A DNA stretch of 64,000 nucleotides from NCBI GenBank assembly GCA_026770705.1, contig JANJGN010000021.1, forward strand, positions 99,014,001-99,078,000, in the 5' to 3' direction. The translations under genes were made by a program, and so were the position numbers. The stretch's first letter is position 1. Every line of letters begins with the position of its first letter. Of this stretch, positions 1,345-43,707 are shown piece by piece. Under the pieces are notes generated by a model. It made no database searches, had not been told where the DNA came from, and worked only from the letters and a program-made list of their open reading frames with translations. This stretch comes from Isurus oxyrinchus (lineage: Eukaryota).

Positions 1345-1619
1345 GAATTCACACTCTTCAATGTATTTGGTCTGTTGAGATCACTGAAGACGGCTCCATT
1401 AAGAGATCGATGCAGTTTGGATTTGATGGAAAGGACTATATTAGTTTAGAGCCAGACAGAATGAGATGGGTCGCAACCAATCACTTTGCAGTGAAGATGA
1501 AGGAAAAATGGGATTCTGATAAATCCTGGAACAAATACTGGCAAATACATCTGCAAGAAGAATGTGTCCAGTATTTAATGCGGAATTTAAGGTTGGAAAG
1601 GAATATTTTGAAGGGAAAC
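1345..1619 (+). CDS. Gene A MHC class I alpha2 exon (GIHTLQCIWSVEITEDG...FGFDGKDYISL...KEKWD...EECVQYL)
   Basis: Acceptor acag at 1341-1344; donor gt at 1620; class I alpha2 motifs HTLQ and FDGKDY; 275 nt versus 276 nt in C. Confidence 0.92.
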
Positions 1620-1736
1620 GTATTTATTTCAGTTTTGTTCCCATGTTCTGATCTAACTTCACTGGTCTATGAAAGTGTTCTCCCATTCCATTCAGTGTCT
1701 GTCTATTGTTTGTGTTTTCACCCTTTTCCATTACAG

Positions 1737-2015
1737 TTCAGCCTGAAGTGTTCATCTCCAGAAGTGACCCCAATAGTCAGTACAAGCCGCTCACTCTCTC
1801 CTGCCTGGTTACTGGGTTTTATCCTGTAGACATTGAGGTGAGCTGGCTAAGGAATGGAGAGGTAATGTCTGAGACACTATCCTCGGGGGTTCGACCCAAC
1901 CACGATGGGACCCATCAGATCCAGAAAGAGATTGAAATAAATGCTGGGGATGAGAATCAATACTCCTGTCAAATTGAACACAGCAGCCTGGCAGAGAGCA
2001 AGCTCTATCAATGGG
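1737..2015 (+). CDS. Gene A MHC class I alpha3 (C1-set Ig) exon
   Basis: LSCLVTGFYP...VSW...PNHDGTHQ...YSCQIEHSSL; 279 nt; ttacag acceptor and gtaagg donor; both Cys intact. Confidence 0.95.
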
Positions 2016-2046
2016 GTAAGGAACTGTAGTGTATGTGTGTGTGTGT

Positions 2047-5688: not shown

Positions 5689-5723
<35 letters not shown>

Positions 5724-9838: not shown

Positions 9839-9954
9839 AAATCCCAGAAAACAGTGCAGGACGCTCCCATCTTGGAATGATATTTGGATTAGTCGCTGCA
9901 CTGGCTGCTCTACTTCTGATAATCGGAATAATCATCTGGAAAAGGCAAAGAGAG
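9839..9954 (+). CDS. Gene A connecting peptide/transmembrane exon (EIPENSAGRSHLGMIFGLVAALAALLLIIGIIIWKRQRE)
   Basis: tttcag acceptor; gtaaga donor; uninterrupted hydrophobic stretch followed by basic residues; 116 nt versus 117 nt in C. Confidence 0.9.
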
Positions 9955-10247: not shown

Positions 10248-10497
10248 TCTTCCTTTGTGTGATCAGCCCAGACCAGGTCTAATATTGATCATTGAACCTA
10301 CCACACACACTCACATCCTCACCTACTGAATATCGATGGAATGGAAGAGATCGACAGGATTTCCATAAAGTGTATGGATGGAGGGGAGTGTGGGATTGAG
10401 TATTTCTTACACAATCTCCATTCCCTCACACTTGTGTTCTCACTCTCTGAAAATGGATTATTCCCCATTCTAATTGACATTTATTTTGCTTCTGCAG

Positions 10498-10530
10498 ATT
10501 CACCAAGTGTGACCTACACAACAGCTCAGA
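10498..10530 (+). CDS. Gene A 33-nt cytoplasmic exon (DSPSVTYTTAQ in phase 1; YxxA motif)
   Basis: ctgcag acceptor, gtaaat donor; near-identical exons at 45397-45429, 56750-56782 and 61678-61710. Confidence 0.8.
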
Positions 10531-10821
10531 GTAAATGACTGAGGGACAGATTGTTGGGAATGAAATACATTTACATTTTCTGCACATTTCTCTCATTCTA
10601 ATTTATCTCAGTTTTAAAAGGTCCTTAAATGTATTTGGGTTTTTATTAGGAGTTTTCTGACTCAATATAAAAGACTCGGAAACACGTCAAGTGGGACAAT
10701 TGATGGGATAAAATCCCATTTCTGGAGCTTGGACAGGTGAGGGGTCAGTCTCCAACCCTCTCCTGTTAAAGTGTCGGGGATTGTGTTGGTCTCTTCCCCA
10801 TTGTACAACTTTCCCCTGCAG

Positions 10822-11231
10822 GAAGGACTGACCCTTCACCTCACTGACCAGATTGTTCCAGAAATCGATGGAATGGAGGATCCAACATGGATGTGACTGG
10901 ATCCAGGCCTCACGGAGAAGCTGAGGAAACTCCGACTGCAGCTGTCGGGGCAGCTGGAGAGCAGCTGGGGGCTGATACATTTGGACATTGGGAGGGAGAA
11001 AATCCCTCTCCCTCCCCCAGGAAATCAGACCAAAGATCAGTGTAGATGGAGAGTGAAACAAGTGACATTTTATTTTAACAGCAAATCCCCATTGCAAAAC
11101 CTTCGAGGTAATCAGTGTTGAACAATGCAAACCTCAGAAAATTGATCTAAAACATTTCATAACATTTATGTTAATGAGTTATTTTTCGAATTTGTAAATT
11201 GTTGGAATCTTAAATGTTTCATGTTAATAAA
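10822..11231 (+). other. Putative terminal exon of gene A (RTDPSPH* at 10822-10847, then 3'UTR to AATAAA)
   Basis: Pyrimidine tract plus ctgcag at 10816-10821; stop at 10845-10847; AATAAA at 11226-11231; mirrored at 56063-56472. Confidence 0.55.
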
Positions 11232-11501
11232 AGTTATTTTGAATTATTTAGAGTGACTTCAGGATGATGGGTAAATACAACAACAACAGACTCAAATAGA
11301 ACACCAACAATTTATAATTTACAAATAGAATTCCCATTAAATAAGACAACACAAACATTTCCTCAAAATGTAACAGCAACAAACCTCCGCTCTCTGTGCC
11401 TGAGGGTCACTGTCACAAAGGACGAGGTGGTTAGATAAAGATGTCCACTCTGCAAGAGCTGCCACCCTAATGCCCCCTGCATCTTCCCCGTGCCTGTGTC
11501 C

Positions 11502-13098
11502 ATAAGACCATAAGCCCATAAGACATAGGAGCAGAAATTAGGCCATTGGGCCCATCGAGTCTGCTCCGCCATTCAATCATGGTTGATAAGTTTCTCAACC
11601 CCATTCTCCTGCCTTCTCCCCGTAACCTTTGATCCCCTTACCAATCAAGAACCTATTTAGCTCGGTCTTAAATACACTCAATGACCTGGCCTCCACAGCC
11701 TTCTGTGGCAATGAATTCCATAGATTCACCACTCTCTGGCTAAAGAAGTTTCTTCTCATCTTTGTTCTAAAAGGTCTTCCCTTTACTCTGAGACTGTGCC
11801 CTCGGGTCCTAGTCTCTCCTACTAATGGAAACATCTTCCCCACGTCCACTCTATCCAGGCCTTTCAGTATTCTGTAAGTTTCAATCAGATCCCCCCTCAT
11901 CCTTCTAAACTCCATCGAGTATGGTCCAAGAGTCCTCAAACGTTCCTCATTTGTTAAGCCTTTCATTCCTGGAATCAATTTCGTGAACCTCCTCTGGACC
12001 CTTTCCAGGGCCAGCACATCCTTCCTGAGATACGGGGCCCAAAATCGCTCACAATATTCTAAATGTGGTCTGACCAGAGCCTTACAAAGCCTCAGCAGCA
12101 TATCGCTGCTTTTATATTCTCGTCCTCTCGAAATAAATGCCAACATTGCATTTGCCTTCCTAACTACTGACTCAACCTGCAAATTAACCTTAAGAGAATC
12201 CTGGACTAGGACTCCCAAGTCCCTTTGCACTCCAGATTTCTGAATTCTCTCCCCATTTAGAAAATAGTCTATGCCTCTATTCTTCCTGCCAAAGTGCATG
12301 ACCTCACACTTCCCCACATTGTATTCCATCTGCCACTTCTTTGCTCATTCTCCTAACCTGTCCAAATCCTTCTGCAGCCTCCCTGCCTCCTCAAAACTAC
12401 CTGTCCCTCCACCTATCTTTGTATCATCTGCAAACTTAGCCAGGATGCCCTCAGTTCCTTCATCTAGATCATTAATGTATGAAGTGAAAAGTTGTGGTCC
12501 CAACACTGACCCCTGTGGAACTCCATTAGTCACCGGCTGCCATCCTGAGAAGGACCCCCTTATCCCCACTCTCTGCTTCCTGCCAGACAGCCAATCTTCT
12601 ATCCATGCTAGTACCTTGCCTCTAACACCATGGGCTCTTATCTTACTGAGCAGCCTCCTGTGCAGCACCATGTCAAAGGCCTTCTGGAAGTCCAAGTAGA
12701 TAACATCCATTGGCTCTCCTTTGTCTAAGGCACTCGTTACCTCCTCAAAGAATTCTAACAGATTTGTCAGGCATGACCTCCCCTTGATGAAACCATGCTG
12801 ACTTTGCCCGATTTTACCAGGCACTTCCAAGTATTCTGAAATTTCATCCTTAATAATGGCCTCTAAAATCTTACCAACAACCGAGGTCAGGCTAATTGGC
12901 CTGTAATTTCCCGTCTTTTGACTCACTCCCTTCTTAAACAGCGGGGTTACATTAGCGATTTTCCAGTCCTCTGGGACCCTCCCTGACTCCAGTGAATCCT
13001 GAAAGATAATGCCTCCACTATCTCTTCAGCTATCTCCTTCAGAAGTCTGGGTTGTAATCCATCTGGTCCAAGTGATTTATCCACCTTCAGACCTTCAG
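11502..13098 (-). mobile_element. Young 5'-truncated CR1 LINE (RT C-terminal part)
   Basis: ORFs 12345-12926 and 11595-12329 (NYRPISLTS, YLDFQKAFD, GVPQGSVLGP, KFADDTK); cttatg-type 3' tail; 6-bp TSD gtgtcc at 11496-11501 and 13099-13104; empty site in the mirror arm near 55760. Confidence 0.95.
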
Positions 13099-13099
13099 G

Positions 13100-14300
13100 T
13101 GTCCTGCCCCCACTTGTGACAGAGACATGTCCAGCAGCTGATAACTCCTCACTGGGGAGCTGCTGACCAGAAGCTGCATCCACTCGAGGTCCAGCTGCTG
13201 TCTCGTGGTCCTGCTCTGTTTCTGTACTTGGAGCTGTCAGGAGTGGCTCTATTGGGGTTATTTGTGACACTGCAATGCTGAAGGTGCAACATGGGGCAGG
13301 AGAGACAGTGTCACTTCACCTGCCCTCCCACCCAGGGTGCTCACCCTCCTGTTTGTCTGGATGTCACTCCCCTTGCCTGTCCAGCTCAAGTTAGTGTCTC
13401 ACTTCCCTCTGTGACGCGGGGCTCAGTGTCTTCACCAGGTTCCCTTTCAACCCCCTGGGCTGCTCTCACTGATTCACCACCACCTCCAGCTGCTGTGTCC
13501 AAAGACAGCACCTGTCAGGAGAAAACATTTACAATGAAGATTCACCTTCCTTTGTCATATCACAGAAGCTCGTCTGTTCAGACCTGGTTTAAACACCCAG
13601 CTACTGACACTCACCTTTCCTCACTCCAATATCTGCTTGGTCACCACTCAGTGAAGTATTACTGATTCCCAGCAGCTGTCTGACCCTCTCTTCATCCTCA
13701 TTCAGAAAGACCACTCCACCTGCGGGTAATGAACACTGCCGGACATTATGACCCATCTCACTCTAAATAGACATGTTAAATAATAACACTTGCTGATTTG
13801 CAAAAGACCTGTCAGGTAGTTTGATGACAGTTTCACACTCCCATTCTGTAGGTTGCAGATAAGAGACCTTTACAAACATTTAGTAAACATGTCACCAAAG
13901 GGAACTGAATTTTCCCACCACCTGACATCATCCACCCCTGACCAACCCATAAACCCATTAACAGGATCTTCACTTCATTACCCATTAAATCTTCAATGAA
14001 CATTTAAATGATAAAAACTGCAAGAACTCTACAAACCCTGTCAGATTGTGTGAACTCATTCCATTTCTTTCGACGTTGCAGTGCGGACCATGGAACAGTG
14101 CAGTTAGCAGTCACACTCTCTGTCACCTCCTTCCACACCAAGACACTAACTCTACTCGGTAACCCACACTTCTCATTACTGAGATGCTGGAGACACTTCA
14201 GCTCCACCTCACTGGCAAATGTGTTGAAGTTTGATTCACTAAAGTTATGACACGTCTTCCTCTCATCTGTCTTTTGCTCTGTTATCTTCTTGTCTGTAAA
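13100..14300 (-). pseudogene. Myb/SANT-like DNA-binding (MSANTD / Harbinger ORF2-type) remnant with a probable second exon ~13100-13511
   Basis: RKTCHNFSESNF..F.SEV...VWKEVTESVTA...RKKWNEF; mirror copy on + at 52340-52600 and 55353-55790. Confidence 0.65.
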
Positions 14301-15556
14301 CAAGTGAATAAACGCTGATGGAAAGCAGTGAAAGATGCTGACATTTGGTATGAACTCACCCTGTTCACATTGAACTGAACCCCAACAACTGGCCATTCCA
14401 AGACCCACAAGCTGCTGAGTGGATGAATTAAACCTTTCTTGTGAAATCAGTAAAGATGAATTTTGACAAGTCAACCACTGACAATTATTTATTGACAACA
14501 AACCACAATTATCAGCACTTTTAGTGAAACATCAGTGATATAAATAAGAACAGAATTTTCTCCATAATTTTACATTATTTATGAAATTTCTAAAGCTACA
14601 TTACATAGCTCTTCAAATTTGACATTATTTGAGGTGCAAAACAGGACAGTTTCATTCAATATAAAATGTGACAGTCTGTGGAGCCTCACTACACCCACAG
14701 TTACAGTTTATATTGAAGATACTCATTTCATGTCCATCACTCAAACTGAATATTTTACATGGTTTTCAGCCCCTCAGACACCCGGAGGGTCTTAGTCAGT
14801 GGTATTTCCCCAATGAGCCTCTGCACCAGATGCTCCAAGTTTTAATATGTCCCTCAGCATTAGTCCTGGAACTTGGAATGTGCCAGACTGCAACACTCAC
14901 TGATCAACAACACTGGGCACTGGGAGAGCAGCTAGTTTCAGACAGACCAAAGCACATCCTTCACTCAGTTGATCGTCCTCCATCAGCAGATGCTGTTTAT
15001 CTCGGTGTGTGTTCCTGGGAACAGCCGGTAGAACACAGAGTCCTGCTTAATGGAGCTGCTGGGATGAACAGTCTGTGACTCTCTGGGAACTCACTGCCTC
15101 GATTCTCACCTTTTTCATCGCACACAACTTGTAAAGTGAAGTGACTCTCTCATTTCTGCCTGTAACTGTCTAGTATAACCATCCACACTGACTTCTGGAA
15201 CCTGTTACTCTCTGTCCTGATTTACATTGTACTTGTTCAACTTCCCTTCAGTATCTGTGAAGAGAATCTGTGGAGTGGTGGGTGTCACACACCCTCTGAT
15301 ATACCTTGAAATTAAATATAAAACCGTTTCCATTCAATTCACCAATCTGGGTAGTACATACGACCTCGTGGTGTCAATCACTTCGAACAGGCGTGTAAGT
15401 CTTCCTGAAGAACTCTCAGTTCATGAAGCCTGAATACCTCAACGTGTCAGTCAGGAATACAACAGCCCCTAATATCTCAATCTGTCCACAACAAGGGATG
15501 AACCCCATCCCAGAAACAGTCATGGGATATTTCTGGATATATGGATCTATAATGAT

Positions 15557-15681
15557 GGGTGGAATTTTACGGCTCCTCCTGCTGTCAGAATCTTCCATCC
15601 TGCCGAAGCCAATGGGCTTTTAAACTGTTCACCACGTTTTGGGCCCCGCCCCCACTGAGGCGGGTCTGTAAATTTCTGCCC
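15557..15681. mobile_element. Short MITE-like element with GGG(T/C)(G/A)GAA(T/A)TT termini (mirror copy 50956-51080)
   Basis: gggtggaatttt ... aaatttctgccc; resembles the Harbinger termini in this window. Confidence 0.45.
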
Positions 15682-15698
15682 CATGTGGCTAACTTTTT

Positions 15699-16370
15699 TG
15701 TGTGTGTGTGTGTGTTTGTGTGAGGTGTGTGTGTGTTGCAGTGTGTGTGTGTGACAGCGTGTGTGTGGCACTGTATTTGTGACAGTATGTGTGAGACAGT
15801 GTGTGTGTGATAGCGTGTGTGTGTGTAACAGCATGTGTGTGGCAGTGTGTGTGTGAAAGCGTGTCTATGTGTGATAGCATGTGTGTCTCCATGTCTGTGA
15901 CAGCGGGTGTGTGTGTGTGTGTGTAACAGCATGTGTGGCAGTGTGTGTGAAAGCTTGTCAGTGTGTGACAGCATGTGTGTTCGTGTCTGTGACAGCATGT
16001 GTGTGTGAGACAGCGTGTGTGTGTGTGACAGCGTGTGGCGTGTGTATGTGTGTGTGTGTGTGCGTGTGCGTGTGTGTGAGTTTGTGTTTCAGAATGTGTG
16101 ACAGTGTCAGAATTTGTGAGTTTATGTGTCAGTGTGCATGTGCATGCGTGTGTCACTGTGTGTCTGTTTGTGCATGTGTGTCACTACGTGTGTATGTGTG
16201 TGTGTGTGTGCGCATGAGTATGCCAGTGTGTGCACATATGTCAGTGGGTCTTTGCCTGTGTCTGTGTCTGTGTGTGTGTGTATATGTGTCAATATGTGTC
16301 ACTCTTTGTGTCTGTGTGTGTGTGTGTCTGTCACTGCTCGTGTCTGTGTGTGTGTCTGTGTGTGTTGTGT
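15699..16370. repeat. Long degenerate (TG)n tract (mirror (CA)n at 50292-50940)
   Basis: Seen directly. Confidence 0.95.
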
Positions 16371-16588
16371 ATACTGATGTATCTGACATTGTATCCATTT
16401 CTGTCTGTCTCCATTTCCCTGTCTTCCTGTCTACTCTGTATGGATCTATCTATCCACAAGATCCTGCTTTATGTCTGTGAGATGTGGATCGCATATTCTG
16501 ACCACATTAAGAAATGGAATCACTATCTCCCGAGCTTCCTGATTCCACAAATGATCAGATGATTAAACAAGATTTCACACACCAAAGT

Positions 16589-17413: not shown

Positions 17414-17955
17414 TAGATGATCAACAAGCTGAGCTTCCAGCTCTCAATGCTCCAGTTGTGAATCACGGTGACAATGGTCAGCTCACGAGGTTCCAGTGTC
17501 TGATGAACCAATCCCCAAGATGATCTTTTCTAGAACATTTCAGGGTGATCCTGGGAGTTATAAACTCTGTTACAAAGGGAAGCAGAAACAGTGCAAGACG
17601 GATGTCCATAATTGGGAACAAGTTGTTGAAGGCAAGAAAGTGTGAGGGAAAACCATCCCTGAATGTCCCTTTGACTGTGAGAGCCGACACATCACTTGAG
17701 AAAACCTCACTTGAAGAATCAGGATCCTGATCTGGAGGATCCGGGATCAATCTCTGGAAACACATTCCAAGGAAAAATAGATCTCCATCGTCAAAGAACT
17801 CAGTGTAAACATTGTCTGGGAGGGTGAGACAGGGTCAGGAGGACAGTGAAATTAGTCTGACAGGTTTAACAGTGTCTGGAAGGGTGAGACAGTGTCAAGA
17901 GCAGAATGAAAATGTTACTAATACATCAATATTGAAAATTGAAAATGTCACTTAC

Positions 17956-17991
17956 TGAATCAGGAAGGTTCTGGAACAGAGACATCAGAAG
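17956..17991 (-). pseudogene. Gene B last coding exon (SDVSVPEPS*)
   Basis: 36 nt with ctcag acceptor and gtaagt donor; same exon type as 48590-48625. Confidence 0.75.
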
Positions 17992-30000: not shown

Positions 30001-30089
30001 GTATCTACCTCTTCAGAAATGAATCCCAATGCATTTAGCCAATCACTTATGAGTGACTGGAGCCTTTATATCATTATCAAAACATGAAA
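27068..30089 (+). mobile_element. Internally deleted Gypsy-like LTR retrotransposon in gene B intron 1
   Basis: Diverged LTRs 27068-27308 (tgttgtaat...acacaaca) and 29856-~30089; PBS-like tggtg at 27309; purine tract 29841-29855; gag zinc-knuckle remnant (CKAFGRKGHW) and integrase remnants (FGVPREII, SHYPSSN); approximate TSD gtctt/gtcat. Confidence 0.8.
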
Positions 30090-30636
30090 GTCATGACCAG
30101 GGAACATGTGGTTTGAGTGAAATCCAGATTGAAATGAAGAGAAACAGGAATATTTGGGAGGATGAAATGTGATACCAGAGAAGGGGACAGTCACTGTATG
30201 AACAGTCTGACTGTCAAACAGGGTGATGGACAATCCACAGCAGGATATTCACTGTCCCTCACAGAGCTTTTTAATCACCCCTTTATACAGGGTCAGGAGG
30301 ATGTTGGTGGTCTGAGATAAACTGGTCTATTCAACCATGAGGGCATCACAGCTGATCCTGGGGTGGGTTAAACATGGGTTATCCTTCTCCTCCCCGCAGT
30401 GTTTTGAAGGCTTTAGACCAGGAGTGATGAAACTGTTTTGCTTCTCCCAATCGATGTGAAAATTAAAAGTGTCCATTTGAACCATTTTCCATTTGCTCCA
30501 AGCTTCTCTGCTCTCGGTGTTTCTACATCCTGCTGTCAGGAGAGTTGGACACAAATCCCATCAGAGTCTTACAGACTGTGCTGACTTCAATGGTGTAAAA
30601 TATCAGGCTGGCTGTATAACAGGCGGCTGATCAAAC

Positions 30637-30852
30637 CAAAACAAAAACAGAATTACCTGGAAAAACTCAGCAGGTCTGGCAGCATCGGCGGAGAAGAAAA
30701 GAGTTGACGTTTCGAGTCTTCATGAAGGGTCATGAGGACTCGAAACGTCAACTCTTTTCTTCTCCGCCGATGCTGCCAGACCTGCTGAGTTTTTCCAGGT
30801 AATTCTGTTTTTGTTTTGGATTTCCAGCATCCGCAGTTTTTTGTTTTTATCT
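30637..30852. mobile_element. Palindromic PLE-terminus insert
   Basis: Inverted arms joined at ~30722; 10-bp TSD ctgatcaaac at 30627-30636 and 30853-30862; empty site in the mirror arm near 33228-33237. Confidence 0.92.
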
Positions 30853-30959
30853 CTGATCAAACATCACCCATTTCAAACTCTCACCGAAAGATTCCAATTA
30901 ACCCCAGAGAGAGAGGGAGAGAGTGAGAGTGAGAATGGAGGGCTGAATTCTGTACTTAT

Positions 30960-31011
30960 CGGGAGAGACCCAGGAAAAACACAGGGAGATGGAGAAAAGG
31001 ATCAGCAACAT
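30960..31011 (-). pseudogene. Gene B leader exon (MLLILFSISLCFSWVSP), donor mutated to ATAAGT
   Basis: 52-nt signal-peptide exon, near-identical to 33073-33124. Confidence 0.88.
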
Positions 31012-31083
31012 TCTGGGAATCCACTGTCCCTGTTCCAATCAGGAGCTGGGAATGAAACACTCTGAGGGGGGAAACGAATCCTG

Positions 31084-31278
31084 TTTATAAACTGGGGAAA
31101 AACAACAAATATATCAAATTTATCGAAGATCCATTTTACTGTTTCAGTTGCACTTTGATCATTTCCTTATTATAGAACCAGAGGGTGAATGATTGGTTAG
31201 TCTCAGAAAAATACCCAATTAACTGGATAACCAGTCAGTCGTCACCTGTTACCAGGAGGATCAAACTGAGACCGGTTA
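31084..31278 (-). promoter_or_regulatory. Gene B promoter: S-like TAACCG, X1 CCTGGTAAC, X2 TGACG, Y ATTGG, CCAAT, TATAAA
   Basis: On minus strand: 31273-78, 31248-56, 31240-44, 31215-19, 31192-96 and 31084-89; order and spacing resemble the MHC SXY module. Confidence 0.7.
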
Positions 31279-31297
31279 AAATGCTGGTTGTAAGAAA

Positions 31298-31720
31298 ACA
31301 ATAACAACTTATATTTATATAGCACCTTTCACCGAATGAAACGTCCCCAAGATGCTTCAGGGGAACATTATAAAACAAAGGATGACCCTGAGTCACACAG
31401 GTCAATGCCCACAAGCTTTCTCAGGGAAGAAGTTTTTAAGAATGTTTTACAGAAAGGCTGAGAGGTGGAGGGAGAGAATTCCAGATCTATGGGCCGAGGC
31501 TGCTGAAGGCACAGCCCCCATTGTGGGTGATTATAATTCCTGATGCTCACAGAGTCAGCATTAGAGGAGGACAGATATCTCACAGGGATGTGGGGCTGGA
31601 GGAGATTACAGAAATAGGGAGGGACAAGGCTGTGGACAGATTGGAATTTTAAAATTGAGGTGTTGCTTGACTGGGAACTAATGGAGGTCAAAGAGCACAG
31701 GAGTAATTGAGGAACAGAAA
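31298..31720 (-). mobile_element. Decayed L2/CR1-type LINE 3' end
   Basis: Minus-strand tail gaaaggtgctatataaatataagttgtt. Confidence 0.5.
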
Positions 31721-31767
31721 ATGGGTCGAGTGCAGAGAGGCCAGTGTGGGGGATTCAGCCTGTTCAC

Positions 31768-31890
31768 TGCACTCCCCTCCTCTAAGTTTGACTCCCTCCT
31801 CTCATTCCCCTCCTGTTAGTTTGACTCCCTCCCCTCACTCTCCTCCTGTTAGTTTGACTCCCTCCCCTCACTCTCCTCCTGTTAGTTTGA
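31768..31890. repeat. ~32-bp tandem repeat (ctcctcctgttagtttgactccctcccctcact)
   Basis: 3-4 copies visible. Confidence 0.8.
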
Positions 31891-32079
31891 CGGTAGTGTG
31901 ACAGCCAATCACAATGGGACGGCCACCTCTACAGGAGGAAGACTGAAGCTGGCAATGGCGACATGACTGTCAGACATTGTGTGAAGAGGGACAACACCTT
32001 CCGCAGGACAGGCAGAACCTGAACAGCTGGAGGGTAGAGGAGAGGAAAGGGGGCAGGAAGGACATGGAGATCATACCTT

Positions 32080-32610
32080 CAACACAGGATTCACCAGCAG
32101 AGACGGAGCTACCTGGAGATGACTGAGACCCAGGGCCACAGGAGACTGTGACCCTTCAGGCAGAAGGTCACTGACATCTGCACCCTGTTGCCAAAGTGCT
32201 GGACCCTCACAGCGATGGCCGCTAGGTCCTTCCTGTAACCGTCAATGTTTCTGTGCCCTTTAACCTCTTCACTCCTGGCTTCTTTCTTGGATCAGCTGAG
32301 GACCTTATTGACATCTCACAAACAGCTGCCCACCACTGCATCTGGCTGGGCACTGATGCCTTCTTTCCCACAGCTGGACAGTACTTGCATTTCGCAACAG
32401 ACACAGCAGCACAGGCACAGAGGGGATTGTGTTCACCTCCATTACCGGATTCTCCCTGGTTCAGGGCACCATCCAATGTACCCAGGTGGCCATCGAGACG
32501 CCAAGTGACCTGCAGTGAAATCCATCAACAGGAACGACACCCACTCCCTCAAGTCCACCTGGTCTGTGACCACAACAAGAGCTCCTTCCATGTAATGACT
32601 GTCGTGGGGA
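32080..32610 (+). mobile_element. Highly decayed Harbinger transposase fragment in the B-C spacer
   Basis: NLFTPGFFLGSAEDLIDISQTAAHHCI..TDAFF and QVHLVCDHNK resemble HARBI1. Confidence 0.55.
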
Positions 32611-32809
32611 GTGTCAATCAGTCCCACACTTCATCTGACCCAGCTCCATCCCCACCCCCCCCCGGCTCTAAGTGGACAGGTACTTGTCTCCATATCACTT
32701 ACAGGGGCAAACCAGTGAAAATCTGAACTTTCATCACTTTCCCACCAGAGACAGCTTCCTGACCCCAAAACATACCCGGATCCGGCTTCCTGCTGAGATT
32801 TCAGCTTTT

Positions 32810-33003
32810 ACTTTCTGTTTCCCAGCCTGAATCTCACTGTGTCTGTGTTTGATCGTCCTGGTAACTCATGACAATTGACTATTTATTCATTTCATTCAAT
32901 ATTGTTCTGAAACTATCCAATCATTCACCCTCTGGTTCTGGAATCAGGAAATGATCAAGCCTTGAGATAAACAGTTTGTGTTGTTTTTCCCAGCCTATAA
33001 AAA
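32810..33003 (+). promoter_or_regulatory. Gene C promoter: ISRE-like ACTTTCTGTTTC, X1 CCTGGTAAC, degenerate X2 and Y, CCAAT, TATAAAA
   Basis: Sites at 32810-21, 32857-65, TGACA 32869-73, ATTCA 32894-98, 32917-21 and 32996-33003. Confidence 0.65.
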
Positions 33004-33072
33004 GTATTAGTTTGCTCCTCAGAGTGTTTCTTTCCCAGTCCCTGATTGGAACAGGGAGAGTGGATTCCCAGA

Positions 33073-33124
33073 ATGTTGCGGATCCTTTTCTCCATCTCCC
33101 TGTGTTTTTCCTGGGTCTCTCCCG
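33073..33124 (+). CDS. Gene C leader exon (MLRILFSISLCFSWVSP)
   Basis: ATG ~70 nt after the TATA box; hydrophobic signal peptide; phase-1 gtaagt donor. Confidence 0.9.
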
Positions 33125-33799
33125 GTAAGTACAGAATTCAGCCCTCCATTCTCACTCTCACTCTCTCTCCCTCTCTCTCCCTCTGGGGTTAATTGGAATC
33201 TTTTGGTGAGAGTTTGAAATGGGTGATGTTTGATCAGCCGCCTGTTACACAGCCAGCCTGATATTTTACACCATTGACGTCAGCACCGTCTGTAAGACAC
33301 TGATGGGATTTGTGTCCAACTCTCCTGACAGCAGGATGTAGGAACACCGAGAGCAGAGAAGCTTGGAGCAAATGGAAAATGGTTCAAATGGACACTTTTA
33401 ATTTTCACATCGATTGGGAGAAGCAAAACAGTTTCATCACTCCTGGTCTAAAGCCTTCAAAACACTATGAAGAGGGGAAAGATAATCCATGTTTAACCCA
33501 CCCCAGGATCAGCTGTGATGCCCTCATGGTTGAATAAACCAGGTTATCTCAGACCACCAACATCATCCTGACCCTGTATAAAGGGGTGATTAAAAATCTC
33601 TGTGAGGGACAGTGGAGATCCTGCTGTGGATTGTCCATCACACTGTTTGACAGTCAGACTGCTCATTCAATGACTGACCCCCACTATGGTATCACACTTC
33701 ATCCTCCCAAATATTCCTGTTTCTCTTCATTTCAATCCAGAATTCACTCACACCACATGTTCCCTGGTCAAGATGACTGATGTCATGCTGACAATCCTC

Positions 33800-34275
33800 A
33801 ATGAAAAGATCAAGAGTGGATAAGAGGAGTTGTAATGGAGAGCGGGGGGGGGGGGGGGGGGGGGCGGGGTGGGGGTGCAGGGTGGGGACTGACATGCCAC
33901 TTTACCTCCTCTCTCCTCACTGTGCAAGGCCCCAAACTCTCCTTCCAGGTGAAGCAGTGATTCATTGCACTCTTTTCAATTTAGTTCATTCTATTCGCTG
34001 CTCTCAATCTGGCCTTCTCTACAATGACAAGACCAAATGCAGACTGAGTGACCGCTTTGCAGTGCACAAGCCTAACCCTGACCTTTTGGTGAGTTGCCAT
34101 TTTAATTCACCATCCTCTTCTCATGCCCACATTCCTGTTCTCAGCCGGCTGTAATGTTCCAATGAAACCCAACACATGATGTAGGAACCACGCCTCATCT
34201 TCCAGTTAGACACTTTCCATCATTATGGAATCAACATGGAATTCAACAACTTCAGACCATGAGCCCTGTCCTCCA
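33800..34275 (+). mobile_element. Old PLE GIY-YIG fragment
   Basis: NLVHSIRCSQSGLLY...TKCRLSDRFA; homologous to the younger PLE copies. Confidence 0.7.
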
Positions 34276-35529
34276 TTATAAATTTATTTTCTCCTACTGC
34301 CAGCCTGTATCTTGATTTCATCTTTTTACTTTCAGACAGTGGATGCAGATGAAGTAGAAATGAGCATGAGTGAAATGCAGAGTAGGGAAGGGAAATAGAG
34401 CAGTCACCAACTTTTAAAAGCAGGAACCAGGATGGTAAGCCAGCAGGGGCACGACCAGTATGTTTTCAGTGTGTGAAGTCTGGGAATATGAGGGAATATT
34501 GTTGCCGTTCCAAAAAAAGCCAACAGAAGGCGATGCAGTCAGAACAGTGTCTGCAGCCATGAACGTGATCGGCCTCTGCTCAAACCTAATCGGTGAGAAC
34601 CACATTGGCTGCAAGAACAATTTGTGAAAGGAGAAAATGATGTCTTTTGTATCCCAGACACCAGGAAAAGAGATCACTGTCCTCAGGGTTAGTAGTTGGC
34701 TTCAAACACAGAGATGTCACCTAAACACAGGACAAACACCACGGTGTTGGTAAAAGGGCTTCCTGGCAAATGTTTTCATCTTCCCTTATTTACCGTTTGC
34801 TTACACAGTAAGCTGGTCACCAATGTAGTGATGGTCGGGGTCATTCTGAACTTCCCAATGCAGAGGGTCAGCCTATTGCTGGGCAGTGCCTTGTGGGGAA
34901 GAATGATATTGTTTCTAGAGGGTCTAGAACAGCCCACGGAGATGGAGCAACTGAGGGGAAGAAGCAAAATTCTGCAGCTGCAGGGGGCTGACGAAGTCCC
35001 AAAATCCCAACAGGGGACGATAGGGCCAGTAAGGGTGAAAGAGGCTAAAGGAAAGACAGTAGGATTTAAGGAGGCCAAGACCAAGGAATGTAAAGGAGCT
35101 GAGGTAAAAGCAGCAGAGGTCAAAGGGAATGTACCAGAGGTCTGGTTGGCAGGAACGGTGTTTAGGATCTAAACAAGGACAGGGAACGTACCCAAACACT
35201 ATTCCTCATGGAATCAGGAGTCAAACTTGAGTTTCCACGTGGCCCAAAACACACTGAAGACTATGGCCTGAATTTTCAGTCCTGTGACATGACCACAGGC
35301 TCAGGACAATTTCCTGCTCCACAAACCCTATCTGGGGAAAAGTGCCCTGGGAGCTAGGGTTTTGGTTCCAGGGGGTAGAGGGGAGGAGATGTTGGTGGGA
35401 GAGTGAAAATGGGAATCATGGTGGGCGACCCCAGAAAGAGTTCACAAGGTGCCGGGTGTGGAGGTGCACTGGTCAAAAAACGACCTCAGTGCTCCAGCAC
35501 TTTATAGAAGAAACCCACCCACCCCGCCC

Positions 35530-36020
35530 CACCATGGCCCCTCACACCCTCTGTACTAACTAATGCCATTCACTGACCCCACCATGGCCCCTCACACCCT
35601 CTGTACTAATTAATGCCATTCACTGACCCCACCATGGCCCCTCACACCCTCTGTACTAACTAATGCCATTCACTCACCCCACCATGGCCCCTCACACCCT
35701 CTGTACTAACTAATGCCATTCACTCACCCCACCATGGCCCCTCACACCCTCTGTACTAACTAATGCCATTCACTCACCCCACCATGGCCCCTCACACCCT
35801 CTGTACTAACTAATGCCATTCACTCACCCCACCATGGCCCCTCATACCCTCTGTGCTAACTAATGCCATTCACTCACCCCACCAAGGCCCCTCATACCCT
35901 GTGTACTGACTAATGCCACTCACTCACAACACCATGACCCCTCATACCCTCTGTACTAACTAATGACATTCACTCACCTTCCCATGGCCCATTATAGCTT
36001 CTGTACCAACTAATGCCAAC
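35530..36020. repeat. 50-bp minisatellite (accatggcccctcacaccctctgtactaactaatgccattcactcacccc)n
   Basis: About 10 copies visible. Confidence 0.95.
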
Positions 36021-36596
36021 TCTTGTCAACCCATGCCCCCCATCCACCATCCTTTTCACTTTTACCTACCATGCCAACCCACCCAGTATCCATTATGGGT
36101 ATACCTTAGGACCAATGCTGAGATTAAAGCTTTTGAGTGTCTATTGATGAATTCAGTATTTCAAAAAAACACTCGCATTGATAAGAAACTATTCACTACA
36201 TTTAACTTCCTTTATTCCATTATAAAAATAGGCATTTGAATTCATTGTCTCGCCTCAAAGAGATTATAACCACTTGCAGCTGTCAGTCAAACTATGAACT
36301 GACAGGCACCCCACTGTGATAATGAAAGGCTGTGAAATCAGCCATGCAACACTAACCCTGTAATGATCCATCACAGACTTGTGGCAACAGAGAGAAAGAC
36401 AAAAACTGATATTTTCTAATAAGGCAGAGTGTTTTTTAAATATTGAAAGTGCAGGAGGTTAAAATGCCTTGACAGCTTCACAGTCCTCTTGACGGTTCAC
36501 TTGACAGTTCTCTTGCCAGCTCCAATGAGATTGACAGTTCCAATGAGTTTATGCACTTTTTGTGCATATTCACATCTACTTTTAAAAATTTGAAAG

Positions 36597-36745
36597 GGCA
36601 CCTGACCTCTCCCAAAGCGCACCTGACCTTTCCAAAAGGGCACCTGACCTTTCCAAAAGGACACCTGACCTTTCTAAAAGGTGTCTTGGAATCATATGCA
36701 AAGGTGTTCCTTACCTCTCCAAAAGTGTACCCTACTTCTCCAAAA
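36597..36745. repeat. 21-bp tandem repeat (cacctgacctttccaaaaggg)
   Basis: About 4 good and 2 degenerate copies. Confidence 0.8.
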
Positions 36746-37699
36746 CACTCTGACAGCTTTATACTTTCTCCGACCAGGTCTAAATTGCACCAGTCATGTT
36801 TTGAACATCCCACTAATCACATCAGCCTTTACTAAGTGCAGTTGCCTCTGTGAACCACAGGTGTGCATTTTAGAATTTACCCCCATTCCCCCACACCTAA
36901 CAGCCCCCATGAAAGTTACGACTGCTGGGTCCAGGGGCTGGACTTCCAGATTCAGGCCTTCGCTGCTGTTTCTATAACAACAGAGAGACTCTCTGTCTGC
37001 CCGCTACTTCAGGCTGTATGTCTGGACGAACGTCAATATGTCTATTGGTATTAAAATGCCCAAACTCCTATAAACAGAAGCTAGTGAAAATCCAACACAT
37101 TTCGAGAACACATAACAGGGAGTTCAAAATGGAAAAAGGATAGAAGGCACAATGTTCCTAAACTAAAGCCTTTAGAGAGGCAAACTTCAAGGCCTGAAAG
37201 AAAGTCATTAAGAACGTACCTCATCCAGAAAAGGATAATGAGGAACTGAAAGCTGAAACAGAAAGATTGGCTGTTGCAGACAGTGGCAGCTGGAGCAGTT
37301 GGAAGATGGATGTGTGGATACCTGAATGAGAGCAGAGTGTGGGCTTGAGATGTTCATGTTTCTCTTGCTTCACCAGGAAAACCAGGGAAAAAATGTAATC
37401 CGGGTTCCTTTTTGTTCCCGTGTGGCTGGGACATGTCAGCTCAGCACTATCGTGTCATGTTCCTTCCTCACTTTTAAGTATGTGCTTTATTCAATGTGCA
37501 TACTTTGGAATTAACTTTCCCTTTATAAAGTGGGTAATGCGCTACAACGTGCTACAAAGGTGATTGTCCAAGGTCAGATGACCTCCCCTGTGAACTTAAA
37601 AACCGACTCACTGTCTAATAGAGACAATTGGGCACATCCCAGGTGAAAAGCTCTTAATTACACATAACCTGAGATCATCAAAAGGCATTCCCAATTCTG

Positions 37700-38030
37700 T
37701 TTTATTCATTCACGGGATGTGGGCATCGCTGGCTGGGTCAGCATTTATTGCCCATCCTTAACTGCCCTTGAGAAGGTGGTGGTGAGCTGCCTTCTTGAAC
37801 TGCTGCAGTCCATGTGGTGGAGGTACACCCACAGTGCTGTTAGGGGGGAATTCCAGGATTTTGACCCAGCGACAGTGAAGGAACGGGGATATATTTCCAA
37901 GTCATAATGGTGAGTGACTTGGAGGGGAACTTCCAGGTGATGGTGTTCCCATGTGCGTGTTACCCTTGTCCTTCTAGATGGTGGAGGTCGTGGGTTTAGA
38001 AGGTGCTGTCGAAGGAGCCTTGGTGAGTTT
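37700..38030 (-). mobile_element. HER1-type CR1 LINE 3' end
   Basis: Minus-strand tail ctcaagggcagttaaggatgggcaataaatgctg...gcccacatcccgtgaatgaataaa; family assignment from memory. Confidence 0.6.
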
Positions 38031-38549
38031 CCTTTTTTGAAATAAAGAAGGTGATCGTCTGAACCTCCTCAGGATGAATGTCTTAAAACAATAAACCAGG
38101 ATGTGGCTTATTAACCTGGTGACACCACCACAATTTCAAAAAGGAACAGTGAGAAGTCACATGGTAGGGCAGTCACGTTCATCTCCTTTTAATCTATATC
38201 TGCTGTTTGCAGAAAGTTAGGGTAGAAAGGACAATAACATCTATGCCTTAAGAACTGGAGGCTATAACATTGTGAGGTCTCCATACCTGTACCACTTTAG
38301 GAACAAGAATGCAGCATAATGACCTCCCTTGTTCTGAGACTACAAGTAACCAGCTTCATGACCTGCATGAAGTCCTCAAGAGAATCCTGAAAACAACTGT
38401 GGCCTTACATTTTGTCTGTTAAATTCACCCAAACTACACTTCAAGAGTCAGGACATCTTTTTATCAGATTTGTAACACATGTTTTCCTGAACAAGGCAAT
38501 CATGTGAATTATGAACTATTTCTTTTGTTTATAACTTGTAAAAGTGCAC

Positions 38550-39512
38550 GGGACACCCTGGTCCACTCCTCCATCACCCCCTACTCCTCAACCCCCTCCT
38601 ATGGCACCACTCCATGCCCACGCAAAAGATGTAACACCTGCCCCTTCACTTCCTCTCTCCTTACCATCCAAGGGCCCAAACACTCCTTTCAAGTGAAGCA
38701 GCATTTCACTTGCATTTCCCCCAACTTAGTCTACTGCATTCGTTGCTCCCAATGTGGTCTCCTCTACATTGGAGAGACCAAACGTAAACTGGGCGACCGC
38801 TTTGCAGAACACCTGCGGTCTGTCCGCAAGAATGACCCAAACCTCCCTGTCGCTTGCCATTTTAACACTCCACCCTGCTCTCTTGCCCACATGTCTGTCC
38901 TTGGCTTACTGCATTGTTCCAGTGAAGCCCAACGCAAACTGGAGGAACAACACCTCATCTTCCGACTAGGCACCTTACAGCCTTCCGGACTGAATATTGA
39001 ATTCAACAACTTTAGGTCATGAGCTCCCTCCCCCATCCCCACCCCCTTTCTGTTTCCCCCTTTTTCCTTTCTTTTCCTTATAAATTTTATAGATTTTTCT
39101 TTTCCCACCTATTTCCATTATTTTTAAATATTTTAAAATCTTTTATGCTCCCCCCACCCCCACTAGAGCTGTACCTTGAGTGCCCTACCATCCATTCTTA
39201 ATTAGCACATTCGTTTAGATAATATCACCAACTTTAACTTTAACACCTATGTGTTCTTTTGTACCATTGTCGCTGACATCTTTTGATGATCTGCTTCTAT
39301 CACTGCTTGTTTGTCTACACAAGCACCTCTCTCTCTCTCTATCTCTCCGCCCCCCCACACACACACCTTAAACCAGCTTATATTTCAACTCTTTCTTGGA
39401 CTCGAAATCAAGTTCTGTCGAAGGGTCATGAGGACTCGAAACGTCAACTCTTTTCTTCTCCGCCGATGCTGCCAGACTTGCTGAGTTTTTCCAGGTAATT
39501 CTGTTTTTGTTT
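38550..39512 (+). mobile_element. 5'-truncated Neptune-like PLE (intact GIY-YIG C-terminus plus pLTR with hammerhead motif at 39411-39449)
   Basis: ORF 38504-39022 CPRKRCNTC...VYCIRC...YIGET...GLNIEF; possible 5-bp TSD tgcac. Confidence 0.9.
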
Positions 39513-39839
39513 TGCACTATTCACTTATTCACTTCAACTGTACTTTGCTTGTGTGTGTTTGTGTGTGTGTATGTGTGAGTTGTTGCCATAGCGTTAGATT
39601 TCAGGGTAAGTGATTAATCTTGCAACCATCTTTCTTTATTTAAACCCACAGGAAGCTTGCTGCTGGTTATTCACATTGTGCACACTCTAAGATGCGAAAC
39701 AAACACACATCTTCTTATCAAAAGCTTATTGATTACAGACAGTTGGGAAGGGAACAGGAATTTCAGCAGTTCTCTCTCATTCTGTCTGTAACAGTGTGTA
39801 AATGTTTATTAAGCTACCTTTAATTTTTTTGTTTTCCAG

Positions 39840-40100
39840 GCACCAATTCATTGACTACGATATATATGGCAGTCTCTGGAATCACAGGATTTCCTGAGGT
39901 TTCAAAAGTTACTCTGGTCAATGGAGTTCAAGTTAATTATCATGACAGTAATGGTCGACAAACCATCCCCAGGCTGCAGGTCATGGCAGATGCTATCAAT
40001 GTGGAATTCTGGGAACATCTCACAGATCTCCGCAACACAAAATCGGACATGGCGGGAGAGAATCTGAATACAATAATGAAGAATACAAACCAGACATCCG
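39840..40100 (+). pseudogene. Gene C alpha1 exon (261 nt, open; donor ATAAG)
   Basis: GTNSLTTIYMAVSGITGFPE...VNGVQV..HDS...FWE...ENLNTIMKNTNQTS. Confidence 0.92.
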
Positions 40101-40711
40101 ATAAGATCAGAGATGTAGAATCATCCATTGATGGTCTTGTTTGATCAGGACTGGATAGGTCCCCAGCCATAGCTATATTGCACTGTGACACTAGGTGTAC
40201 AGTGTGTGGAACACCATAAATCATGTACAAATGGAGGGTTATTCTAGTACCTTCTTCCTATTCTGATTGAGATATTTTACATTATCAAGGACAGAGGCCA
40301 TCACTCATGGATAGAGAATATGAGGAGAACAATCAACAGATATTAACACTACTGAGCATGTGTGTGTAGGGAGGAGACCTCGATGTTGCTGCTCACACAA
40401 TGACAGGTTAACTGTTTGCACTTACACAGTAACTCAGATAGTGGAAATGTGATTCTGTACTAACCTAATGAATGTTTCCTGTGATTCACCATTCACCAAG
40501 ATTTTGGATTTGGGAACACATTAGAAACTCTACATTCTCTTGCAAAGTTCTAGCCTGTGCAATCTGGAGGACACAGAATACAAACCCATGATGGATTCTC
40601 AGTTCACGAGTGCATTCGGTATCAGTATCATGAGCTCTGCATGTAGTTGATTGTATTAGTCTTGTTAGAATCTCTGGAGAGACTGTTTACTTTTCAGAGA
40701 AATTCAGATTT

Positions 40712-41490
40712 CAGGTCAAACATGGGCAAGGAAATTTCCTGCTGATTACCACCTCGTGCCCCCTTGACCCTCAGTTGATGAATCAGCTCCTCCATGTTGA
40801 ACACCACTTGGAGGAAGCACTGAGGTCAGGCAAGGGCACAGAATGTATCCTGGGTGGGGGACTTCAATGTCCATCACCAAGTGTGGCTCGGTAGCACCAC
40901 TACTGACCGAAGCCAAAAGTATATAGCTGCTGGACCAGTTCTGTGACAAGTGGTGACAGAACCAACAAGAGGGAAAAACCTACTTGACCTTGTCTTCAGC
41001 AACCTGCCTGCCACAGATGCATCTGTCCAGGACAGTATCGCTAGGAGTGACCACCGCACAGTCACTGTGGAGCTGAAGTCCCGTCTTCACATTGAGGATA
41101 CCCTCCATCGTGTTGTGTGACACTACCACTGTGCTAAAAGGGATGGATTTCAAACACATCTAGCAACTCAAATCAGGGCACCCAGGAGATGCTGTGGGCC
41201 ATCAGCAGCAGCAACAACAATCTGTAACGTCATGGCCCAGCATATCCCCCACTCTACCATTAGCATTAAGGGAGCATTAGACCGAGTGTGGAATCAAGGA
41301 GCCCTAGCAGAACTGGAGTCCATGGTAATCAGGGGGAAAAGTTTCCAATGGTTGGAGTTATACTTAGCACAAAGGAAGATGGTGGTGGTAGTTTGAGGTC
41401 AGTCATCTCAGCCTCAGGACATCACGGCAGGAGTTCCTCAGGGCAATGTCCTAGGCCCAACCATCTTCCTCTGCTTCATCAATGACCTTC
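40712..41490 (+). mobile_element. Decayed CR1-like LINE endonuclease/RT fragments
   Basis: WVGDFNVHH, PTRGKNLLDLV, GVPQGNVLGP. Confidence 0.75.
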
Positions 41491-41519
41491 AAATAGCCAT
41501 TTGGTAGCACAGAGCTTGA

Positions 41520-43350
41520 GTATTAGTGAAAAAAGGGAAATGTCAAAGCTTTTTGTCTTGCACTCATCAGGGCACTCGCAAGAATACCGTTATAAGGGGG
41601 AAAACAATAATTTATACATTATGTGAAGAGAGTGCTGATTTGTTGGCAAATAGCATTGCCATGGAGAATACACCACTAATGTTGACTTACAGTTAACTGC
41701 CAAGCATTTTTTGAAATTTAAACCAGGTACCTTGAATCTGGTTGGTCAAGGTATTGCCCTGAGGAATGAGTCAGCAAATGGCTGTCACTTATTTTATTGA
41801 GCTGAAACATGCATAATGTGTGTACATATTCTTTCGGCTGCAAAGAACAGGGCCCTGTGTGTTAATATGTGTAGCTTTCAGTACACACCAATGCACCACA
41901 TTGCTAGCCTGACTAACAATCCTAAATTGACTGTCAGCATAATTCTCAACACACTGACGATTATTTACTGAATGTTGTCCAATCGCAGAGTCACATTTAG
42001 TGTTGGACACTGTGGTTTTGAGTTTTGCAAGCCCAGGCTGGTTGGGTATGATTTGTACCTTGCCCGTTGTCAATAGCAGAAGGGACAGGTTGTTTCATAT
42101 GACCCACCAGTCTTTGGGATGTATGGCCTACATACCTAGCAGCACATGGTCACTGCAATTCATATACCACACTACTCATTTGTGTGATAGGCAGAATGCC
42201 TTATTGGCTTGATGGCAGCATCCTTTTAGTGGTGAATACCATTCGTGTTGCTGCTGCATAGTAGCAGCATGAAACAGCTAGCTTCACCTGTTGCTCATCG
42301 TTTTGAGATGCCTTGTCCTTCCAGGATAACCTGAGGTAGACTGGGCACTTTTCAGGGCTGAAAGTGACAGCCTTAGGCCTGTTCATGAGTTTGTGTGATA
42401 TACAGTGTGAAATGATCTGATCAGGGTAACCATTATCCTGCAGGATGCTATAATGCGCTCTATTTCAGCATCAAGCTTGCATGCTGTACAAATGGCTCGA
42501 GCCCTATTTATGAAGTTGCTGATAAGGCCAATCTTATAACATGTGGACCCGCAAGAGACCCAGTGTGTGTATTGATCAGTGAAGGTAGACTTGTGGTAGA
42601 CCGTGGTAGAGACCCCCCCACAACAGATTTCTCAACTAGCACGTCAAAGTAGGGGTGTTCATTTGACTGTTCCATTTCAAAGGTGAATTTGAGAGTATTC
42701 TGGAGCCCATTAAGACATGTAAGGAAATTGTTACATGCAACTGCAGATTTAAATATAGCAAATGTATCATCCACACATCAGAAATATGCAATGGTGGTCG
42801 TTCTAGATCGTAAATAGCCCTGGCTTCCTTAAGTGGAACATTGGTGAATAGACTAGGAATGTCAAATGAACACATGGACACAGCATTGCTATCAATACAC
42901 AAGCCCTGTATGGCCTTCGCAACTGCAAAGGAGTCCCTCACCATGTATGTGGAGAACCTGGTCCAAACTGATTGTAACAATTCACCAAACCATTTGGCCA
43001 ATTCATGTTGTGTGGAGCCAGATATAGATAAGATAGTGTGTAGGGCGACATCACCTTTGTGTGTCTTAGGCACCCCATACATACGCGGACACAGCGAGCC
43101 GTGAGGATAAGCCCTGTAATATATATCACGTGGCAGCTCATCGCTCTTACACAAGTCCAGCAGGCATTTCTTTTTAGCTTACTTTCGAGCAGGGCTGTCC
43201 GGTCATGTTGACCAACAGGACCGATGGATGTCATTTTGGATCTGTCATTAAGAATGGAGTGTATTATGTTGATATAGTCACACTTACTAAGAATGACTAT
43301 TCCTGTCCCTTTGTCAGGTTTTCTGTTTCGATTTGAGATTTCTACCACCC
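41520..43350 (-). mobile_element. Older Penelope/Poseidon-type PLE (RT remnant)
   Basis: KPDKGTGIVIL, YGVPKTHK, FDIPSLFTNVP, DDTFAIF, FTFEMEQ; terminal CTGATGA-gtgcaagac-AAAA decayed hammerhead at 41542-41575. Confidence 0.8.
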
Positions 43351-43431
43351 GCAGTATTTTGCTTTTATCTCAGTGTAGCAATTATAAACCTCCAGTCCAC
43401 TGATTATTCATCATCATTTGCTCTCTGCCAG

Positions 43432-43707
43432 GAATCCACATTTTCCAATGGATAACAATTGTTGAGATCACTGAAGACGGCTCCATTAAGAGATTGATGC
43501 GATTTGGATTTGATGGAAAGGACTATATTAGTTTAGAGCCAGACAGAATAAGGTGGGTCACAACAAATCACATTGCAGTGAAGACTAAGGAAGAATGGGA
43601 TTCGGACGAATCCTGGAACAAGTATTGGAAATGGAGTATAGAAGAAATAGGTGTACAGAATTTAAAAAGATATTTTGAAGCTGGAAAGGAGCATTTTGAA
43701 AGAAAAA
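43432..43707 (+). CDS. Gene C alpha2 exon (276 nt, open, no cysteine)
   Basis: GIHIFQWITIVEITEDG...FGFDGKDYISL...KTKEEWD...EEIGVQNLKRYFEAGKEHFERK. Confidence 0.93.

Follow-up and report, generated by a model that had tools for sequence, protein, structure and literature searches.

Three broken copies of a shark multigene MHC class I family, most likely UEA, whose full-length members all lack Cys101

The nonclassical class I lineage UEA is found in sharks and is not known from rays or chimaeras. It is reportedly described by Almeida et al. 2021 (J Immunol 207:824), in an abstract that is said to call the groove hydrophobic; the terminal anchor residues are said not to be conserved, and expression to be weak across tissues. 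The sections of PMC10751288 used here describe a cluster in which UDA is single-copy and UEA multicopy, and report, for a 0.58-Mb stretch of white-shark chromosome 19, 13 class Ib genes that differ in orientation. In the sections of PMC12562908 used, no shark class Ib families other than UBA and UEA are named as expanded. According to a passage of PMC2900293 (citing Warburton 1994), breaking the C101-C164 bridge in HLA-A2 costs stability and function.

We have analyzed shark DNA carrying three class I copies with Val in place of Cys101. We think it probable that these are broken copies of a multigene family, most likely UEA, whose full-length members all lack Cys101. For the intact members we predict association with beta2-microglobulin, and likely a hold on peptides at the C-terminal end that admits extended or modified N-termini.

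The window and its three class I copies

The window, the whole 64-kb stretch of DNA that was analyzed, contains three MHC class I copies, A (+), B (-) and C (+), located by tblastn and splice sites. Copy A is present from alpha2 onward, its alpha1 lying outside the window. Copy B spans leader to transmembrane exon, and copy C has a complete exon set. Across the copies the leader, alpha1, alpha2, alpha3, transmembrane and cytoplasmic exons of the class I heavy-chain plan are all found. The features are as follows.

1345..1619 (+), copy A alpha2 exon: 275 nt, 1-nt deletion near 1590-1602 giving a frameshift; V101, C164, C97
1737..2015 (+), copy A alpha3 exon: open, both cysteines present
9839..9954 (+), copy A transmembrane exon: 116 nt, one base less than the 117 of C; assignment to A inferred
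10497..10535 (approximate, +), copy A first cytoplasmic exon: by tblastn
18256..18348 (-), copy B transmembrane exon: 24 nt shorter than that of C, in-frame stop
19780..20042 (-), copy B alpha3 exon: 263 nt, 16-nt deletion giving a frameshift
20160..20413 (-), copy B alpha2 exon: 254 nt, 22-nt deletion giving a frameshift; V101, Y164
26433..26693 (-), copy B alpha1 exon: open; N3, V7, N29, C45, F59, M84, N86 sequon
30960..31011 (-), copy B leader exon: donor AT, not GT
31012..33072 (no strand), B-C head-to-head interval: 2.06 kb, two related putative promoters
33073..33124 (+), copy C leader exon: intact donor
39840..40100 (+), copy C alpha1 exon: open, donor AT not GT; N3, T7, N29, F59, N84
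43432..43707 (+), copy C alpha2 exon: 276 nt, open, cysteine-free; V101, G164
43816..44094 (+), copy C alpha3 exon: in-frame TAA near 44037
44694..44810 (+), copy C transmembrane exon: 117 nt
45396..45434 (approximate, +), copy C first cytoplasmic exon: by tblastn
56745..56783 (-), cytoplasmic exon: of a further copy or a duplicated 3' end
61673..61711 (-), cytoplasmic exon of a further copy: its 5' part would fall beyond the window
10365..56918 (no strand), nested inverted duplication centred near 32 kb: non-coding arms 91-99% complementary

With three copies and further 3' ends within 64 kb, and many paralogs per species, this is a multigene cluster. No MHC marker gene flanks the copies within the 64-kb window (the neighbours of the UEA cluster are UDA, brd2 and beta2-microglobulin). 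Copies B and C sit at the centre of the nested inverted duplication. Its arms (10365-18613 against 44429-56918) are 91-99% complementary, whereas B and C, in their mirrored alpha1 exons, are just 71% alike. The remaining window is repeat-rich vertebrate DNA. There are tandem arrays at 318-1294 (59 nt), 25779-26379 (39 nt) and 35527-36018 (50 nt), the first two inside the alpha1-alpha2 introns of A and B. Fragments resembling retroelement reverse transcriptase/endonuclease were noted by eye at 8170-8910, 11598-13025, 38423-39019, 42204-43178 and 53094-54842, and 3370-4508 and 58182-59347 form an inverted pair, 83% alike, a putative remnant of a DDE transposase.

Within the B-C interval X-box-like sites lie at 31243-31256 (-) and 32857-32870 (+), and an ISRE-like site at 32810-32822. 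The order of these motifs, which were fitted after the sequence was seen, appears class I promoter-like. Their numbers are close to what chance would give in the window: in one count 2 against an expected 1.97, in the other 1, a number reached by 11 of 100 shuffles. On the B side (31215-31256, -) the X-box-like site is followed 20 nt on by ATTGG. On the C side (32810-32921, +) that ATTGG is absent, and the ISRE-like site is upstream of the X-box-like site.

All three copies are disabled and are pseudogenes. The alpha2 exon of A is one base short; two contigs of DNA run X1, which may be the window's own sample, match A at 1446-1535 and 1516-1660 with 0 differences and 0 gaps. Copy B has lost the leader donor, and has the 22-nt and 16-nt deletions and the transmembrane-exon stop. 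Copy C has lost the alpha1 donor and has the alpha3 stop. None of the RNA contigs displayed matches A across its deletion, a result that is uninformative on expression. The white-shark model P0051, 96% identical to A, omits the stretch containing A's deletion and begins in an out-of-frame alpha1, and in the white-shark model P0020 the donor position that is lost in C is likewise read through. Both are RefSeq models listed as protein-coding, yet they patch over breaks, two of which are the same as those of C and A. Database counts of the family therefore include pseudogenes. As the three copies are pseudogenes, compared across just 91%-identical DNA, they could not carry an argument about the lineage alone.

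Groove residues in the copies and in full-length relatives

In class I proteins the group Y7, Y59, Y159, W167 and Y171 forms the N-terminal pocket, braced by the 101-164 bridge, and the group T143, K146, W147, Y123 and R84 holds the peptide C-terminus. H93, Q96 and D119 are at the interface with beta2-microglobulin, and N86 is a glycan site. The copies were numbered by eye from a published alignment that sets HLA-A2 beside a family member (in the part of the PMC10751288 supplement used here). Position 101 is Val in all three copies. Position 164 is Cys in A, Tyr in B (read past the 22-nt deletion) and Gly in C. Position 7 is Val in B and Thr in C, 59 is Phe in both, 84 is Met in B and Asn in C, and positions 3 and 29 are Asn in both. 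Position 159 is His, His and Ser in A, B and C, and W167 is lost in all three (Tyr, His and Asn). H93, Q96, D119, Y123, W147 and N86 are retained, together with T143 in B and C and K146 in A and B. Copy A has N171 as well as its additional Cys97. The calls of the sequence-only reading, the cysteine-free alpha2 of C included, were all reproduced. Cys45 of B, at a position that in HLA lines a groove pocket, is unpaired, and the extra Cys97 is found in both A and P0051.

Two homolog searches and a cluster look-up gathered 141 proteins, of which 100 cover alpha1-alpha3; the 41 partial or patched models were excluded from the relative set. The 87 that are unique in alpha1-alpha2 comprise 73 family members and 14 outgroups, the 73 being database gene models of which some are possibly patched. 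The named family hits come from 13 shark species only. No ray or chimaera is among them, but the search was word-seeded and this absence is therefore weak.

Cys101 is missing in all 73 relatives (Val in 69, Ile in 2, Ala in 1 and Leu in 1). Cys164 is missing in 67/73; position 164 takes ten residues, with Cys in six relatives and Leu, Phe or Tyr in 51. H3 is missing in 72/73 and D29 in 71/73. Among the residues of the N-terminal pocket, Y7 and W167 are present in 0/73, Y159 in 14/73, Y59 in 28/73 and Y171 in 51/73. Position 7 is Val, Ala, Thr, Gly or similar throughout (73/73), and W97 is found in 53/73. At the C-terminal end T143 is kept in 56/73, K146 in 66/73, W147 in 73/73, Tyr or Phe at 123 in 69/73, and R84 in 15/73. 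H93 and Q96 are retained in every relative, D119 in 71/73 and N86 in 72/73. The change is lopsided: judged by these residues the N-terminal pocket appears rebuilt, and T143, K146 and W147 are mostly kept. The C101-C164 disulfide of classical class Ia (UAA) is absent from the copies and their relatives alike, and of the nine terminal peptide-anchor residues B has five and C four, with a family mean of 5.1, so that by either feature the copies fall outside that class.

A profile search served as control. Of its best 150 representatives 139 were new proteins, and these gave 188 domains, none of the family. All 169 alpha2 domains that cover both sites (19 others do not) have C101, and 163/169 have both cysteines; H3 and D29 are both retained in 140 of 150. 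The sequence-only reading had taken C101-C164 and H3-D29 to be near-universal in class I. Both cysteines are also present in 13 of the 14 outgroups, the exception being dogfish UCA. From the sequences compared, the missing C101 is not a matter of chance. No compensating disulfide was found in the groove domains of the 73 relatives. Of the six carriers of C164, three have a second groove-domain cysteine, each near alpha1 position 45-47, and C45 occurs in 29/73 relatives, mostly unpaired.

The phylogeny that the sequence-only reading proposed places A, B and C within one clade of 78 rows (SH-aLRT 98, quick search). Copies B and C lie beside full-length neighbours having the same residue at 164: Y164 of B is shared with P0015, and G164 of C with P0002, P0003 and P0005. 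The C164 carriers and A are scattered over about five places in the tree, and a relic is therefore indistinguishable from a regain. A subclade of 14 rows (P0043 and 13 neighbours, SH-aLRT 98) has R99, R167 and R171, and extends from Heptranchias to lamniform sharks. Its N-terminal groove end would be cationic and might suit an anionic ligand.

Contigs of three runs, guessed to be RNA, join alpha1-alpha2 and alpha2-alpha3 at exon borders. They come from paralogs, and have Val or Ile at 101, read from loose ends, and Phe at 164, taken from listed differences. The sequence-only reading had suggested a search for intact expressed paralogs with V101. No single displayed contig covers both 101 and 164. 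Decay or assembly error accounts for the frame and splice breaks, and all three copies are broken. As the explanation of the missing residues it is so improbable that we give it virtually no weight, given that C101 is missing from 73/73 full-length relatives, that Val or Ile101 occurs in spliced paralog contigs and that dN/dS is <1 in the groove exons. The reading of the odd residues as traits of the lineage rather than pseudogene decay, already made from the window's sequence, is supported because no relative retains C101 and the spliced contigs agree; the widespread losses of C164, H3 and D29 point the same way.

Placement among the shark class I lineages

The family is very probably the nonclassical shark lineage UEA. 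The name rests on elimination and on what the UEA abstract reportedly states, because the supplement row that matches the family is labelled UCA and none is labelled UEA. In the part of the PMC10751288 supplement used here the label UEA has 0 occurrences. The matching nurse-shark query (file 10), labelled UCA, has V101 and L164 and resembles the family in all three domains; by eye it is identical to copy C at ~58/92 alpha2 residues (about 63%). No UEA-named protein is among the homolog hits. In the published alpha2 alignment, as far as it was used, both cysteines are present in 23/26 rows by eye, the exceptions being the nurse-shark "UCA", dogfish UCA and a UHA row. The UHA row of that supplement is a further divergent class I query whose alpha2 has cysteine at neither 101 nor 164.

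The family resembles UEA in being multicopy and clustered, in occurring here in sharks only, and in having several sublineages. The unconserved terminal anchors ascribed to UEA are seen as well, the loss being partial and mostly at the N-terminal end. The nearest white-shark models are on a 115.8-Mb contig, compatible with chromosome 19, and the family fits the multicopy class Ib cluster of that species. The three copies here differ in being pseudogenes.

Other named lineages were considered. With UAA, UBA and UDA the family shares the exon plan, the fold, H93 and Q96, the N86 sequon in most members and the alpha3 disulfide. In contrast, 13/13 outgroup rows keep C101-C164, H3, D29 and W167, and have 7-9 of the nine anchors against the family mean of 5.1. 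By eye the UBA queries in the portion of the published alignment used retain both alpha2 cysteines, as do those of UFA and UGA, and identity with these three was rejected on that ground. UDA was also rejected: identity to P0128 is 26-27% and the clade is a separate one, and UDA is single copy, with 8/9 anchors and both cysteines.

Dogfish UCA (P0132, Q8HWI9; AF515705) has V101 and V7 and is without Cys164 and W167, and is a possible sister of the family. It differs in keeping H3 and D29, in losing T143, K146 and W147, and in having 1/9 anchors. Orthology was rejected, with 25-29% identity and a position outside the 78-row clade in the three-domain tree. The sister grouping is supported at 96 both by the three-domain tree and by that of alpha1+2, but the branch is very long, the domain trees came with a long-branch warning, and alpha3 alone does not recover the grouping. 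It is very unlikely, in our estimation, that the family is an unnamed lineage distinct from UEA, or consists of true UCA orthologs. The UCA label of the matching published query would fit this, as would V101, the lack of C164 in dogfish UCA and its place as sister in two of three trees. However, the identity of dogfish UCA over alpha1-alpha2 is no higher than that of classical class I (30-32%), and as a query it finds no relative above 33%. Moreover UBA and UEA are the sole expanded families named in the sections of PMC12562908 used, and the UBA queries keep both cysteines. Of the candidates put forward in the sequence-only reading, UEA or UCA is upheld and an unnamed sublineage is superfluous. 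One of the outcomes which that reading had set as a refutation, real but not novel, is largely borne out: the copies nest in a lineage whose published nurse-shark representative already has Val101 and Leu164.

A statement that shark UEA or UCA lacks C101-C164 was not found in the literature searched, the primary UEA papers being outside its scope, and this is uninformative on novelty. The passages of PMC6523485 used contain nothing on the loss of C101-C164. The feature is real and lineage-wide, yet it is in a described lineage and visible in a published alignment, and the lineage is not new.

Fold, ligand and evolution of the groove

The structure prediction that the sequence-only reading had suggested was run with AlphaFold2 on the heavy chain of full-length P0021 alone. 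The model is predicted to retain the class I fold, with a mean pLDDT of 83 (about 88-95 across alpha1-alpha2) and a TM-score to class I structures of about 0.9; its alignment included 12 disulfide-bearing outgroup rows, and it is silent on stability or ligand. In a fold search classical class I ranked highest, and the first YF1 hit came at rank 30 and the first MR1 hit at rank 37. The scores are in a narrow range, and therefore do not separate peptide from lipid binders. Among solved structures none is close, the top PDB matches being about 35% identical. Loss of H3 and D29 may weaken the interface with beta2-microglobulin.

A rebuilt N-terminal pocket combined with the kept T143, K146 and W147 suggests C-terminally anchored peptides, N-terminally extended or modified, over pure lipid. 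The C-terminal anchor is partial, because R84 is present in just 15 relatives. We tentatively propose that the ligand class of the intact members is a peptide gripped at the C-terminal end and extended or modified at the N-terminus. HLA-F and mouse H2-M3 are nonclassical molecules with an altered N-terminal pocket and long or N-modified peptides, and keep the alpha2 disulfide. Xenopus XNC4, in the section of PMC12562908 used, is similarly nonclassical, with an altered N-terminal pocket and long or N-modified peptides. All three are comparisons of how such a molecule could work and are not orthologs of the family, which is known here from sequence.

The sequence-only reading had pointed to a non-peptide or atypical ligand; a non-peptide ligand is unsupported here, and the mostly kept T143, K146 and W147 argue for a peptide-like C-terminus. 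It nevertheless seems conceivable, if somewhat doubtful, that the ligands of the intact members are lipids, acylated fragments or small metabolites, as with CD1, chicken YF1 and MR1. Small residues at 7 and 24 together with the lost bridge would open a hydrophobic cavity. Replacement of Y7 throughout, W97 and the Leu, Phe or Tyr at 164 of most relatives, and the reportedly hydrophobic UEA groove all fit such a cavity, and the R99/R167/R171 subclade would suit an anionic head group. Yet MR1 keeps just the Trp of T143, K146 and W147 in the alignment, and the shark lipid binders reported in the sections of PMC12562908 used are UFA and UGA, in which both cysteines are retained. Quite unlikely, we think, is that the intact members have no groove ligand at all and serve as stress or homeostasis ligands for receptors, as MIC-, HFE- or FcRn-like molecules. 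The lost H3-D29 pair and disulfide would be in keeping with that, as would an alpha1 averaging only 50% identity within the family, but the C-terminal anchor residues are kept, sublineage-specific groove residues are conserved from Heptranchias to lamniform sharks, and FcRn itself retains both cysteines.

Under the peptide reading, the bridge would have been lost once, before the sampled shark orders split, along with Y7 and W167, two residues that line that end of the groove. Position 164 would then have become a freely varying site. Intact members would assemble with beta2-microglobulin, the rebuilt pocket would admit extended or chemically modified peptide N-termini, and the paralog sublineages would carry different ligands.

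The domains of the family have diverged to different extents, with a mean identity of 50% in alpha1, 68% in alpha2 and 87% in alpha3. Among A, B and C intron 3 differs by 4-8% and the alpha3 dS is 0.04-0.05; for the long alpha2 helix dS is 0.7-0.9 and dN 0.24-0.34 (26-29 codons). Domain trees were built from a thinned set of 25 of the 73 relatives, 14 outgroups and the three copies. In the alpha3 tree lamniform and carcharhiniform genes group by order, with support of 87 and 89, and in the alpha1+2 tree the genes group as cross-order sublineages. From this we infer that alpha3 has been homogenised within shark orders around old groove lineages. Gene conversion, or repeated duplication of a block, would homogenise intron 3 and alpha3. 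No positive selection was detected in pairwise comparison of the copies: dN/dS is about 0.3 to 0.95, below 1 everywhere, and diversifying selection is therefore unsupported.

A wider scheme, which we judge unlikely and offer as speculation, would derive UEA and dogfish UCA from one ancient branch in which the disulfide was abandoned and the N-terminal pocket remodelled to present microbial peptides that are N-acylated, N-formylated or N-extended. Old cassettes of the groove, among them the cationic R99/R167/R171 type from sevengill to lamniform sharks, would be kept while conversion within inverted repeats overwrites alpha3. If true, this would provide a natural, stable, disulfide-free class I groove, and a direct test of the purpose of the bridge.

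By themselves copies A-C contribute little: all three are pseudogenes, white-shark models of nearly the same sequence exist, and a published alignment already displays the absence of the cysteines. What merits further work is the ligand and structure of the intact paralogs. Here an entire family of shark genes dispenses with a bridge that HLA-A2 needs for stability and function, and its intact members offer a natural experiment in how class I folds and in class Ib presentation in sharks.
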